Part shown: positions 13,259-59,824 of the stretch, one piece after another
Layout of the letters: every line of letters starts with the position of its first letter
Numbering within the stretch: position 1 is the stretch's first letter
DNA from: Ruminococcus sp.
Lineage (GTDB): Bacteria > Bacillota > Clostridia > Oscillospirales > Ruminococcaceae
Strand: one strand, 5' to 3'
Assembly (NCBI RefSeq): GCF_017519145.1
Contig: NZ_JAFWTA010000021.1
DNA: 64,000 nt
Notes under the pieces: model-generated
Told to the model about the DNA's origin: nothing
Databases searched by the model: none
The model's input: only the letters and a program-made list of their open reading frames with translations
Made by a program: the position numbers and the translations under genes

Positions 13259-13284
13259 ATACATGGGAGTGCCTGCAAGCGAAT

Positions 13285-13312
13285 GGCTAAAGGCTAAGGG
13301 CTAATGGCTAAA
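13285..13312. repeat. heptamer micro-array (GGCTAAN)x4
   Basis: GGCTAAA GGCTAAG GGCTAAT GGCTAAA. It lies between a terminator and the glyQS -35 box. Confidence 0.7.
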
Positions 13313-15433: not shown

Positions 15434-15465
15434 GACTAAAGGCTAAGGGCTGACGGCTAAAGGCT
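15434..15465. repeat. heptamer micro-array (GGCTAAN-type, 4.5 units)
   Basis: GACTAAA GGCTAAG GGCTGAC GGCTAAA GGCT. It is directly preceded by GCCGCCGCCCTC, which shares the 10-mer CGCCGCCCTC with the REP at 43162. Confidence 0.65.
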
Positions 15466-30569: not shown

Positions 30570-30594
30570 GTAGGGGCGCACAATGTGCGCCCCT
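30570..30594 (+). repeat. REP-like element (GTAG + 11-bp perfect palindrome), second sequence family
   Basis: GTAGGGGCGCACAATGTGCGCCCCT between convergent genes, abutting the terminator. Confidence 0.55.
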
Positions 30595-43128: not shown

Positions 43129-43161
43129 GGTTTATCCTTTCATAAATCGGAATTTATATGT

Positions 43162-43236
43162 GTAGGGAACGCCGCCCTCGGCGTTCCGTTGGGCATGTAA
43201 TACATTTTGCGGAACGGCGAGGGCGCCGTTCCCTAC
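43162..43236. repeat. inverted REP doublet (REPIN-like)
   Basis: GTAGGGAACGCCGCCCTCGGCGTTCC (43162-43187, + sense) and GTAGGGAACGGCGCCCTCGCCGTTCC (43211-43236, - sense), separated by 23 nt. Each arm is itself GTAG plus a 9-bp hairpin. Confidence 0.75.
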
Positions 43237-43240
43237 ATTA

Positions 43241-43268
43241 TGCTAATGGCTATGTGCTAACGGCTTAA
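43241..43268. repeat. heptamer micro-array (KGCTAWN, 4 units)
   Basis: TGCTAAT GGCTATG TGCTAAC GGCTTAA, directly abutting the REP doublet. Confidence 0.55.
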
Positions 43269-56526: not shown

Positions 56527-57114
56527 TCATTTTTTTAAGCTTCTTACGGTATCGAGCTCATTCTCGGAAAATCCCTCTTTCGGGAGAATATAGAACATTT
56601 CTTTTCCCGACATGAGCATGAAAAATCTTTCATATTCCATGAGCTGAAAGCTGTCATCAGCGGCAAGTCTGGTCTTTTCGGGAAGGGGATCGATATCCTC
56701 GGGGATATCCTCCTTTTCCTCATCGGAGAGCTCGCTGAGATTGTCCGAGACCGTAGATATATCCACAAATTTGTCGCCTACGCCTATTTTGTACACAGGC
56801 TCGCCCAGAGCCTTTACCGACTCTGTGAGACTGCGGCGGAGCTTCTTGGGATTGTACCACTCTCTTGCCGCAAAGGCAAATGCTGCCACAATGGCGATAT
56901 AGACGATGTATTTCTGTTTCGTGGAAGCGCCGCTCATTGCAAATATCCCCACACAGAGCAGAGCTACGGCAATAACAGTGAATATTATCATGTATATCCT
57001 GCTCTTGGGGTAAACGAATTTTTTCTGGAACTCGCCGTAAGCCTCGCTGAAAAGCTCCGGGCTTACCTTGTATTCCTTTTCAAGCCTGTAATTTTCCATT
57101 GCAGCTCCTGTCAT
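56527..57114 (-). CDS. YcxB-like membrane protein between gyrB and gyrA
   Basis: Two TM helices, then ...[30 protein letters not shown]. Its start ATG overlaps the gyrB stop (ATGA). Confidence 0.5.
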
Positions 57115-59042
57115 ATATCAAGATCCTGAGCGAACTTTGCGTTCTTCTCGATGAAGTTTCTTCTTGGCTCTACCTTGTCGCCCATGAGTATGCTGAAGGT
57201 CTCGTCTGCCTTGAGGGCGTCCTCCATGCCAATTCTTACGATGGTACGGTGCTCGGGGTCCATAGTTGTCTCCCAGAGCTGTTCGGGGTCCATCTCACCA
57301 AGACCCTTGTAGCGCTGTACCTCTACGTCCTTGTACTTGCCGTCCTCGGAGAGCTCGGCGATGTACTTATCGCGCTCCTCGTCGGAGAATGCGTAGTATA
57401 TCTTCTTTTTGCGCTCGACTCTGAAAAGGGGAGGCTGAGCGATATAAACATTGCCGTTGGTGATAAGGGGTCTCATATAGCGGAAGAAGAAGGTGAGGAG
57501 CAGAGTTCTGATGTGCATACCGTCAACATCGGCATCCGCCATGATTATTACCTTGCCGTAGCGGAGCTTTTCGATGTCGAAGTCCTCGCCTATTCCGGTT
57601 CCGAGGGCAGTAACTACGGGCTCCAGCTTGTCATTGCCGTAGATACGGTCTATACGGGCTTTCTCTACATTGAGCATCTTGCCCCAGAGAGCAAGGATAG
57701 CCTGATAGCGTCGGTCACGGCCCTGCTTTGCAGAACCTCCCGCAGAATCTCCCTCGACAATGTAAATCTCGGTATAGCGGTTGTCGCGCTCGGCGCAGTC
57801 CGCCAGCTTTTCGGGCATGGTAGCCTTTCCGAAGGCGTTCTTGTTACGCTCTGCCTCACGGGCGCGCTTTGCAGCTTCACGGGCTTTGAGAGCGGAAACG
57901 CTCTTTTCAAAGATGAGGTTTGCAGTCTCGGGGTTCTCCTCTAAGAAGTTCATGAGCTTTTCCTGCACCATTTTCTCGATAAAGGGTCTTACCTCGGGAT
58001 TTCCGAGACGTCCCTTTGTCTGACCCTCGAACTCGCATTCTGTCAGCTTTACTGAGATAATGGCAGTAAGTCCCTCGCGGACGTCCTCGCCCTTGAGCTT
58101 GTCCTTGGCGTCCTTTATCTTGCCCATCTTGACGCCGTACTCGTTGATGACCTTGGTCAGGGCATTCTTGAAGCCTGTCTCGTGTGAGCCGCCGTCCTTG
58201 GTGTGGATATTGTTTGCAAATGAGAGTATTACTTCATTGTAGCTGTCGTTGTACTGGAGAGCTATCTCCGCGAAGGAGTCGCCTTGAGTTCCAGAAATAT
58301 AGATAACATCGCCGCTGAGGGATTCGAGTCCTCTTGTGGCGTGGATATGCTCTACGAACTGACGGATACCGCCCTCATAGTGGAGGGTCTCGCTGAGGAT
58401 ATTGGCGCTGTCGCGCTTGTCAGAGAATACTATCTTTATGCCTGCATTGAGGAAAGCCTGCTCGCGGAGACGCTTCAGAAGCACCTCGTAATCGTATACG
58501 GTGCTCTCGAATATCTCATCGTCAGCCTTGAACATTACGCTGGTACCTGTCTCCTTGGTATCGCCGATTATTTTCAGCTCCTCGTCGTAATGACCGCGCT
58601 CAAAGCGCTGGAAGTAAACGTGCTCTCCGTCCTTGACTGTGAGCTCCAGCCATGAGGAAAGGGCATTAACTACCGAGGCACCAACGCCGTGGAGACCGCC
58701 CGATACCTTATATCCGCCGCCGCCGAACTTACCGCCTGCGTGGAGGATGGTATAAACTACTGTTGCAGCTGAGATGCCCTCCTTTGGGTGGATGCCTACG
58801 GGGATTCCTCGTCCGTTATCGGAAACGCGGATGATATCGCCCTCAAGTATCTCAACGGTTATCTCGGTACAGTAGCCTGCAAGGGCTTCGTCGATGGAGT
58901 TGTCCACTATCTCGTAAACGAGGTGGTGGAGTCCTCCGGGACCTGTGGAACCGATGTACATACCGGGTCTTTTGCGGACCGCTTCAAGTCCCTCCAAGAC
59001 CTGTATGTCGTTTTCATCGTAATTGTTGTTCTGCTGACTCAT
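57111..59042 (-). CDS. gyrB: DNA gyrase subunit B
   Basis: [30 protein letters not shown] ATPase, Toprim [20 protein letters not shown], and PLxGKxLNVEK-type block. Confidence 0.98.
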
Positions 59043-59045
59043 GAT

Positions 59046-59564
59046 TTACCTCCAATAATTCTGGTTGTATATGTCATTGACCCAATTTATGGGATTATTG
59101 TCAATGTAATTGCAGATCTCAAGGAATTCCCTTTCATTGCGGATTATGTGGTCGTGAAATGATTTCTGCCATATAGAGAAACCTATCTGTTTTGTAGAAA
59201 TAGATTTAAGCCCGTTGATTATCTGAGAAACGTTTTTTGTAGGGAACGCCGCCCTCGGCGTTCCACAATTTACAGATTTATCTTCATAATCCGAAATGAA
59301 CAAAATCATATGAATATGGTCGGGCATTATTACATATTTCGTAACCGCAACATAGCGGTATATATCATTTATTTTTTTGATATTTTTATCAACGATCTCA
59401 CCATATTCCGTTAATTTTATGATCGGAACGCCGAGGGCGGCGTTCCCTACATCACGGATATCTGATAAATACCTGATACGGTCTTTCGTGCAAATGGTAA
59501 TGAAATACAGACCATTCCGTGAATAATCGTAATTTTTCAATCTGTTCAGCCTGCGATCCTCCAT
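59046..59564 (-). CDS. HUH/Y1 transposase-like protein of the REP-associated (RAYT-like) type
   Basis: RLKNYDYSRNGLYFITICTKDR, HUH motif VIMPDHIHMILFI, WQKSFHDHIIRNE, and Tyr motif ICNYIDNNPINW. It contains two in-frame REP copies. No IS ends are visible. Confidence 0.8.
   Translation of the reverse strand: MEDRRLNRLKNYDYSRNGLYFITICTKDRIRYLSDIRDVGNAALGVPIIKLTEYGEIVDKNIKKINDIYRYVAVTKYVIMPDHIHMILFISDYEDKSVNCGTPRAAFPTKNVSQIINGLKSISTKQIGFSIWQKSFHDHIIRNEREFLEICNYIDNNPINWVNDIYNQNYWR
59239..59264 (+). repeat. REP copy inside the RAYT-like ORF (antisense to the gene)
   Basis: GTAGGGAACGCCGCCCTCGGCGTTCC, identical to 43162-43187. Translated on the gene strand as CGTPRAAFPT. Confidence 0.85.
59425..59450 (-). 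repeat. REP copy inside the RAYT-like ORF (sense with the gene)
   Basis: The minus strand reads GTAGGGAACGCCGCCCTCGGCGTTCC, translated as (D)VGNAALGVP. Confidence 0.85.
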
Positions 59565-59824
59565 CAGAACCCTCCGCCATTTTTCAGGCGTTTCCGCAGT
59601 GTAGCTGCCGAGAGCTGGGAGATATACACCCTCTCGCTGCCGTTCTTCACTGTTATTATGAAGCTTTTCGGCATTTCGTAGGTTGTGTATATACAGTGAT
59701 GTTCCTTTTCGGCACGTTCAAGGAGCTTCTTGGTGCACTTTTCAACAGTTGTGTTCTCAATGTCGAAAATCCCCACAACGTCCCTGACGTCCACGGAGTA
59801 GTTATTCCCTATGTGCAGATACAT
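59564..59824 (-). CDS. remB: DUF370 protein (RemB/YaaB-like)
   Basis: [23 protein letters not shown]...PKSFIITVKNGSERVYISQLSAATLRKR. It holds the conserved position between recF and gyrB. Confidence 0.8.
   Translation of the reverse strand: MYLHIGNNYSVDVRDVVGIFDIENTTVEKCTKKLLERAEKEHHCIYTTYEMPKSFIITVKNGSERVYISQLSAATLRKRLKNGGGF

Follow-up and report, generated by a model that had tools for sequence, protein, structure and literature searches.

A probable REP-associated tyrosine transposase gene between remB and gyrB of Ruminococcus carries an inverted pair of REP hairpins in frame

Few mobile-DNA systems of bacteria persist by vertical inheritance, and those that pair repetitive extragenic palindromic sequences (REPs) with REP-associated tyrosine transposases (RAYTs, or TnpA_REP) are of this kind. 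The unit recognized by characterized TnpA_REP enzymes is a hairpin with a GTAG foot on single-stranded DNA (ssDNA) (PMC8266576). In subclass 2.4 of this family, which corresponds to the Group 4 RAYTs (Bertels et al., 2017), in-frame REP insertions inside the tnpA_REP gene itself are a published hallmark (Quentin, Siguier, Chandler & Fichant 2018, BMC Genomics 19:475, PMC6006769). The same authors give NH[IFV]H, WQ and YIxNNP as the motifs of the subclass, together with the lack of a C-terminal extension. Palindromic repeats have also been described inside other genes, and Di Nocera et al. (2013) noted that many such intragenic REPs and Rickettsia palindromic elements (RPEs) interrupt genes for replication or repair. 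Here we describe an open reading frame (ORF) of 172 residues located between remB and gyrB in a 64,000-nt stretch of Ruminococcus sp. DNA (assembly GCF_017519145.1, contig NZ_JAFWTA010000021.1; referred to as the window), from a genome of the R. flavefaciens type. Judged from its sequence, this ORF probably encodes a single-copy-type RAYT of subclass 2.4, that is, an HUH/Y1 ssDNA endonuclease-ligase, with its cognate REPs in frame. An earlier note on this DNA had regarded RAYT genes as flanked but not penetrated by REPs, a view that is outdated by the published description of subclass 2.4.

The 26-mer GTAGGGAACGCCGCCCTCGGCGTTCC occurs twice within the ORF as an inverted pair, both times without a mismatch, where no match would be expected from shuffled sequence (Table 1). 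The sense copy, REP1, is read in frame as GTA GGG AAC GCC GCC CTC GGC GTT CC, and the antisense copy, REP2, as GGA ACG CCG AGG GCG GCG TTC CCT AC. The perfect inverted arms reach 27 nt and are 160 nt apart. As ssDNA, REP1 is predicted to form a hairpin with a 9-bp stem and a 4-nt loop (-12.1 kcal/mol, z=-5.4). REP1 and REP2 are genuine REPs, one on each strand, forming a pair of a REP and an inverted REP (iREP) around the HUH-coding segment, and the earlier note had correctly described them as two exact, in-frame copies bracketing this segment. The two REPs stand out as GC-rich islands within an AT-rich gene: the GC content of the ORF is 37% (33% without the REPs) with 0.45 at third codon positions (GC3), as compared with 47-53% and a GC3 of 0.62-0.65 for its operon neighbors.

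Table 1. Positions of the features discussed, in window coordinates
Feature	Position	Strand	Basis
RAYT / TnpA_REP (subclass 2.4-like) ORF, 172 aa	59046..59564	-	ORF listing, NCBIfam, 4ER8 matches
REP1, GTAG-footed hairpin, sense orientation, frame 0, V39-P47 (VGNAALGVP)	59425..59450	-	motif scan, translation
REP2, second copy of the 26-mer, antisense to the ORF (iREP), G101-T109 (GTPRAAFPT)	59239..59264	+	motif scan, translation, fold
HUH motif codons H83-I84-H85, within PDHIHMI	59310..59318	-	direct sequence reading
Catalytic-type Tyr Y153, within NYIDNNP	59106..59108	-	sequence
W132-Q133...H137-D138-H139...R142, putative GTAG-contact segment	59136..59171	-	phmmer alignment to 4ER8
remB, 1-nt stop/start overlap with the RAYT ATG	59564..59824	-	NCBIfam MtxRegRemB, 63.7 bits (cutoff 40)
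gyrB, ATG 3 nt past the RAYT stop	57111..59042	-	sequence; GyrB Pfam domains in orthologues
REPIN-like intergenic doublet: REP 43162-43187 (+), 23-nt spacer, iREP 43211-43236 (-)	43161..43238	.	motif scan, fold

The inverted pair is a trait of the family. Among 92 unique homologous genes with 35-98% identity, a recognizable HUH motif was present in 89, of which 62 carried a sense GTAGGG-footed hairpin before the motif and an antisense one after it, with 42 distinct REP sequences; the remaining genes had only the hairpin before the motif (7), only the one after it (12), or neither (8). A REP followed the HUH strand in 74 of the 89 homologues, as in the window gene, and REP1 was in frame 0, encoding Val-Gly, in 60 of the 62 paired genes. 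The density of GTAGGG-footed hairpins was 3.0 per kb in the homologous genes, and 0.16 per kb in their flanks (498 kb in all). In an alignment of 36 proteins, the two loop peptides switched jointly: VGNAALGVP occurred with GTPRAAFPT, VGEAALGLP with GRPRAASPT, VGDGVLDVP with GTSRTPSPT, and VGADIIRP with GRMISAPT, each couple corresponding at the DNA level to one hairpin and its reverse complement. The question raised by the earlier note, whether homologues encode these loops by palindromic DNA, is thereby answered in the affirmative for most of them. Six of the genes with a REP only after the HUH motif had a GTAG foot on both strands at that site, either as a single "double-foot" hairpin (L187, L196, L202 and L208), a type also described by Quentin et al. 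(PMC6006769), or as two separate hairpins (L138 and L193).

The hairpins are constrained at the level of DNA. Between the window gene and the orthologue at locus L002, dS was about 1.0 and dN/dS 0.06, and the RAYT protein is thus under purifying selection. Within the REPs, synonymous differences were found in only 1 of 18 same-residue codons in the comparison with L002 and in 0 of 18 in that with L082, whereas the rest of the gene showed 35-44%. When the two hairpins of each of the 62 in-gene pairs were compared, 29 pairs were identical, 19 differed in the loop only, seven had compensated stem changes and two had uncompensated ones; the other five pairs were left out of the stem comparison for differing hairpin geometry. 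What is preserved is each GTAG-footed hairpin, as DNA and not as a peptide.

The assignment of the protein to the RAYTs, already made in the earlier note, is supported by both sequence and fold. The NCBIfam RAYT model (NF047646, REP_Tyr_transpos) matched the ORF with E=2e-18, and the sole PDB entry matched by sequence with phmmer was 4ER8, E. coli TnpA_REP. In that alignment, W132, Q133, D138, H139 and R142 coincide with residues contacting GTAG in the E. coli enzyme, which are listed as W94, Q95, W99, E100, H101 and R104 in PMC6006769. All five residues were invariant in the alignment of 36 homologues, as were H83, Y153, N156, N157 and P158, and H85 was conserved in at least 90%. The HUH and Tyr motifs that the earlier note reported as intact can be read directly in the sequence. 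The protein contains WQ and YIDNNP, the latter being followed by 14 residues. The NCBI entry for the exact protein is WP_295132562.1, "transposase [Ruminococcus sp.]", and a protein of R. flavefaciens SAb67 with 98% identity is named "REP element-mobilizing transposase RayT".

An AlphaFold2 model of the protein (mean pLDDT 75) was searched against the PDB by Foldseek. The best match was again 4ER8 (TM 0.54-0.57), and all of the 30 top matches were TnpA_REP or IS200/IS608/ISDra2 transposases. In the model, H83-I84-H85 lies on the strand 83-90 and Y153 on the helix 144-162, so that the HUH motif on a β-strand and a single Tyr on a C-terminal helix, within an α/β fold, characteristic of the HUH/Y1 superfamily, are both in place. 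The REP1 peptide is the turn joining strands 34-37 and 48-51 of a β-hairpin that comes after β1. The REP2 peptide, residues 101-109, is placed between the strand 83-90 and the helix 108-127 (αC), in the linker 95-107, the only internal segment with a pLDDT below 50. Both sites are plausible permissive sites according to this model, in agreement with the alternative offered by the earlier note that REPs had settled in tolerant loops. In this respect the locus resembles the intragenic REPs and RPEs (Di Nocera et al., 2013), which are palindromic repeats in frame in surface loops of functional proteins, although the host gene here is the very enzyme presumed to mobilize the repeat.

Compared with subclass 2.4 as presented in PMC6006769, the locus shares the HUH, WQ and YIxNNP motifs, the absence of a C-terminal extension, canonical long GTAG REPs, a patchy phyletic distribution, flanking repeats in moderate numbers, and in-frame, gene-sparing REPs in the variable region after the HuH strand, predicted to be peripheral. 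It differs in that the text of that paper places the insertions "generally between HuH and Y", whereas the window gene and most of the sampled homologues have a sense REP before HuH as well. Toward E. coli TnpA_REP/YafM (RAYT Group 2; 4ER8, REPtron), the best structural and sequence match, the likeness extends to the retained GTAG-contact positions (W, Q, acidic-H, R) and probably to a single, vertically inherited gene accompanied by REP or BIME (bacterial interspersed mosaic element) doublets. However, the identity is only about 19%, the E. coli enzyme has a C-terminal extension that is absent here, and the REPs of E. coli flank the gene and have bulged stems, in contrast to the perfect 9-bp stems inside the ORF of the window.

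The 26-mer also exists outside the gene. The window contains an intergenic doublet (Table 1) whose plus-strand arm is an exact copy of the 26-mer and whose minus-strand arm, the fourth copy, has two mutually compensating stem changes. The earlier note had found the exact copy at 43162 and overlooked the second arm. As ssDNA, the doublet is predicted to fold into a single long hairpin (-34.6 kcal/mol, z=-8.8), and it resembles the REPINs, REP doublets described by Bertels and Rainey (2011), in having two inverted REPs, a short conserved spacer and one long hairpin. The in-gene pair is likewise arranged head-out, but its 160-nt "spacer" is the HUH-coding core of the enzyme and has no similarity to the 23-nt REPIN spacer. 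The spacer of the doublet, GTTGGGCRTGTAATAYATYTYGC (43188-43210), recurs in the unrelated Bacillota metagenome-assembled genome L057 (708-730 and 6187-6209) in both orientations, as expected for a mobile REPIN, and the stems there differ by compensated changes. We rejected the possibility that the intergenic doublet is a deletion derivative of the in-gene pair, as its spacer has nothing in common with the stretches that adjoin the in-gene REPs on their inner side. Short tracts in which GGCTAA(N) recurs every 7 nt were seen at 13273-13312, 15436-15461 and 43243-43268, the last of which directly adjoins the doublet.

Beyond the window, at least five further Ruminococcus assemblies had the exact 26-mer at sites other than RAYT genes among the matches listed, which also contained one further exact copy in YAD2003 (L102) that is not counted as lying outside RAYT genes. 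The repeat is thus not confined to its in-gene copies. Scanning of a genome collection with the pattern GTAGGGNNNGCCGCCCTCGGCNNNCC retrieved at least 120 stretches from Ruminococcus, Oscillospiraceae, Acidobacteriota and others; in the matches listed, the variable triplets were almost always complementary, and nearly all were outside RAYT genes. As to whether the in-gene REP type corresponds to that of the own genome, which the earlier note had asked, 39 of 69 REPs in the flanks (57%) differed by at most two mismatches from the REP inside the gene at that locus, where 2.4% would be expected from other loci, the loci having been fetched by protein similarity. Several loci did not match, so the correspondence between gene and genome is statistical and not strict. 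A strict one-to-one match of the in-gene type with every REP of the genome was rejected, since several REP families coexist in R. flavefaciens genomes. The window itself has, at 30570-30593 (+), a single copy of a second GTAG-REP family, GTAGGGGCGCACAATGTGCGCCCC; this type adjoins N-type REPs in R. flavefaciens FD-1 (L092) and RUG13777 (L121) and is found inside the RAYT genes L154 and L194.

The position of the gene is conserved in relatives. The order remB-RAYT-gyrB was found at L001-L008, L082, L119, L130, L133 and L210-L212; every retrieved locus of the R. flavefaciens group had it with the same tight junctions, at 56-98% protein identity and regardless of REP type, and the much more distant genome L178 has it as well. 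An extra unannotated ORF of 175-201 residues with a predicted membrane-like N-terminus was observed between remB and RAYT at L008 (9464-9991), L211 (915-1445) and L212 (9376-9981), and it seems that insertions are tolerated at this place upstream of gyrB. More distant homologues are located elsewhere, typically coupled to an upstream gene on the same strand and often with a 4-nt overlap. Their neighbors include uvrB (L145, L139, L184 and L161 together, three of these loci being Pfam-confirmed and the fourth, L161, recognized by eye), spore photoproduct lyase (L208), pgk, purN, purF, IMPDH and glycosyltransferases, and in two cases the homologue lies between topoisomerase genes (gyrB-X-gyrA in L190, a parE/parC-like pair in L012). 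Embedding in host operons is a habit of this RAYT clade, and the list of neighbors is suggestive of a bias toward genes of DNA metabolism.

At the junctions of the window gene, the sequence is as the earlier note had read it: the remB stop and the RAYT start share one nucleotide (TGATG), ATC and then the gyrB ATG come directly after the TAA that ends the RAYT ORF, and the ribosome-binding site of gyrB, GGAGG, lies inside the last two sense codons of the RAYT ORF. The ORF abuts both neighbors, and the placement is kept in relatives, leaving no space for signals of its own or for insertion sequence (IS) ends, as had been pointed out. On the minus strand, the genes follow one another as dnaA (partial), dnaN, an S4-like gene, recF, remB, the RAYT ORF, gyrB, a YcxB-like gene and gyrA. 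Site prediction at the locus gave no terminator-like site on the coding strand, and no Rfam family reached its gathering threshold anywhere in the window. The final ~55 nt of the RAYT ORF (59046-59100) and the start of gyrB were 96-98% identical between strains, the adjoining coding DNA 80-93%, and a promoter-like site (59122-59094, minus strand; TTGAGA-17-AATAAT, 10/12 matches) is located immediately upstream of this block. Together, they might serve gyrB as a promoter or leader within the RAYT ORF. Between gyrB and gyrA, an ORF of about 195 residues (56527-57114, minus strand) with a weak YcxB-like match overlaps the gyrB stop; it is kept in all R. flavefaciens-group loci, and the gyrB-gyrA gap of L190 holds a RAYT gene instead.

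The RAYT alleles are mosaic. Sliding identity along the operon was 80-98% in the flanks and only 30-65% in the RAYT center, from REP1 to about W132, for alleles with another REP type. Among 121 proteins, 126 pairs had N- and C-terminal parts at least 90% identical around a center of at most 55% identity, and the converse pattern also occurred. Some junctions fall inside the hairpins, as verified in the DNA: REP1 of L210 combines an N-type 5' arm with a D-type 3' arm and REP2 is chimeric at the opposite end, so that a D-type segment is bracketed, and L211 has a chimeric REP2. At site 1, L212 and L210 have REPs in tandem, two or three in number. The sequence type of P0079 switches just past the HUH motif and not in a REP, for which reason we rejected the view that recombination joins alleles at REPs alone; the REPs and the HUH motif are conserved islands at which divergent central segments can recombine between alleles. 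The mosaicism is not an artefact of assembly because the isolate genomes L002, L003 and L005 are mosaic as well. No homologue had the REP-bounded segment inverted relative to its flanks, and the opposite-strand matches were the palindromic REP peptides alone. An invertible segment serving phase variation was rejected on this ground.

Several observations weigh against assigning the gene to subclass 2.4 with an in-frame REP pair as its constant companion. The ORF does not reach the curated cutoffs of either the NCBIfam RAYT model (66.7 bits, equivalog cutoff 80) or Pfam PF01797 Y1_Tnp (19.3 bits, gathering cutoff 23), which leaves it formally outside both models; several homologues pass the Pfam cutoff weakly, and the low scores are probably due to the splitting of the domain by REP-encoded inserts. 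Its HuH motif is DHIH, where PMC6006769 has NH[IFV]H for subclass 2.4, although NHIH is found in more distant homologues such as L009. One or both REPs are missing in 27 of the 89 homologues, which makes the pair non-obligatory. At several loci of R. flavefaciens (L001-L005; MA2007, L003 vs L027), the REPs of flanks or genome are of other types than the in-gene pair. Finally, some close relatives have frameshifted copies, arguing against an essential role for the host. Among the frameshifted members of the 90% cluster of the window protein (P0125 with P0128, and P0127), one is split just before the HUH motif and another changes frame after REP2, so some strains retain inactive copies. The suggestion of a domesticated RAYT therefore stands in part: the locus is fixed and dN/dS is 0.06, but the foreign-like GC content (37% vs 47-53%), the frameshifted copies and the recombinant alleles argue against full domestication.

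We propose that the RAYT gene, which in the R. flavefaciens group has a fixed place between remB and gyrB and is translationally coupled to both, would most likely be expressed by read-through of the recF-remB-gyrB-gyrA operon. By analogy with characterized TnpA_REP, the enzyme would cut and rejoin ssDNA beside GTAG-footed hairpins, with its C-terminal WQ..HDH..R and YIxNNP part reading the invariant GTAG(GG) foot and supplying the Tyr nucleophile, and this activity would maintain and move REPs and doublets such as that at 43161-43238. The in-gene hairpins would owe their tolerance to the parts of the protein that they encode, a β-hairpin turn and a disordered linker. They would most likely be held intact by continued recognition and overwriting by the enzyme, or by gene conversion from the genomic pool of REPs, with the side effect that REP and enzyme are inherited together.

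Whether the in-gene REPs serve any purpose is a separate matter. It is quite conceivable, though we would put it somewhat short of an even chance, that they are passive passengers, which colonized two permissive loops once and early and were kept by RAYT overwriting or gene conversion with no role for enzyme or host. Both sites fall in a loop or disordered region of the model, not all homologues have both REPs, and even L008, an orthologue in the same remB-gyrB slot, lacks REP2. The pile-up of tandem REPs at site 1 in L210 and L212 is like intergenic REP clusters, and Quentin et al. favor tolerance in a peripheral extension (PMC6006769). On the other hand, position, orientation and frame have been kept at only 35-40% identity, with the near-constant frame of REP1, and both arms follow one lineage-specific sequence. 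Such conservation is equally expected under a functional role, so these data do not separate passengers from functional elements.

A functional role could be sought in the mosaic structure. With junctions inside the hairpins, the REP/iREP pair might be a built-in joint for exchanging, between alleles, the segment that codes for the HUH strand and the helices next to it, by which a RAYT fixed in a housekeeping operon could be re-matched to new REP families without moving. The clade may also be preferentially recruited to operons for DNA topology and repair. We consider this reading speculative and rather doubtful. E. coli BIMEs have long been observed to be gyrase sites. If the reading were true, the recruitment to remB-X-gyrB, gyrB-X-gyrA, parE-X-parC-like, uvrB-X and SPL-X (SPL, spore photoproduct lyase) would hint at a functional link of the REPs and their enzyme with gyrase or repair.

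The earlier note had suggested autoregulation or self-targeting through the hairpins in the gene's own mRNA or ssDNA. In a post-transcriptional version of autoregulation, the REPs would pair with each other or fold singly in the operon mRNA and block ribosomes or create an RNase III site, thereby keeping RAYT output low and uncoupling the recF-remB half from the gyrB-gyrA half. The predicted fold of the sense RNA would accommodate this, with a REP1:REP2 stem of about 31 bp and a minimum free energy of -99.2 kcal/mol as compared with -61.5 kcal/mol for shuffled sequences (z=-7.4). The gene has no room for a promoter of its own, and a dampening of read-through RAYT expression by REP hairpins was proposed by Di Nocera et al. 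However, stem changes are compensated within each hairpin and not between the arms, and 19 pairs differ in the loop, which argues that selection acts on the individual hairpin and not on the long REP1:REP2 stem; single-REP homologues also exist. We thus disfavor the long-range stem as the target of selection, strongly predicted as it is, and regard autoregulation as unlikely.

An ordinary IS200/IS605-type insertion that landed in the operon by chance is highly improbable. The weak matches to Pfam Y1_Tnp and to the NCBIfam IS200 model and the low GC content of the ORF, 37% next to neighbors of about 50%, would fit it, but the IS200 model scores only 17.4 bits, far below the RAYT model. Moreover, the ORF abuts both neighbors with no flanking ends, the hairpins are internal and inverted, a tnpB gene is absent, the same slot is occupied in more than 12 genomes, and the family is almost absent from plasmids and phages (5 matches among 72,556 records of plasmids and 1 among 50,697 of phages). 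That the two peptides are selected as protein and the palindromy of their DNA is incidental is scarcely credible: they are conserved in close relatives, yet inside the REPs synonymous sites are frozen, the peptides become entirely different from one lineage to another while always remaining reverse-complement translations of one hairpin, and identical DNA is also intergenic.

A RAYT of subclass 2.4 carrying its REPs in frame remains our preferred reading of the locus. The presence of REPs inside a RAYT gene, its central feature, is already known, and close relatives are already annotated as RayT. Incremental additions are the inverted-pair rule around the HUH motif, the constraint at the nucleotide level, the mapping to loops, the conserved slot in a replication operon and the mosaic alleles; they make the locus a good model and leave its category unchanged. 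Term searches of PMC6006769 returned neither the remB-gyrB operon context nor mosaic alleles.

For annotation, our results imply that REP-encoded inserts interrupt the domain, which leads curated models to under-score such proteins, and that GC-rich palindromes in such ORFs are not assembly errors. RAYT-REP systems pose the question of how an enzyme and its repeats stay matched over time, and to our knowledge no biochemistry has been reported for Group 4 or subclass 2.4. The locus offers a compact natural system in this regard, with an enzyme gene that physically carries its presumed substrates in a fixed and easily compared operon. Because the mosaic alleles pair differing central segments with differing REP types, the determinants of specificity may be accessible by allele swaps.

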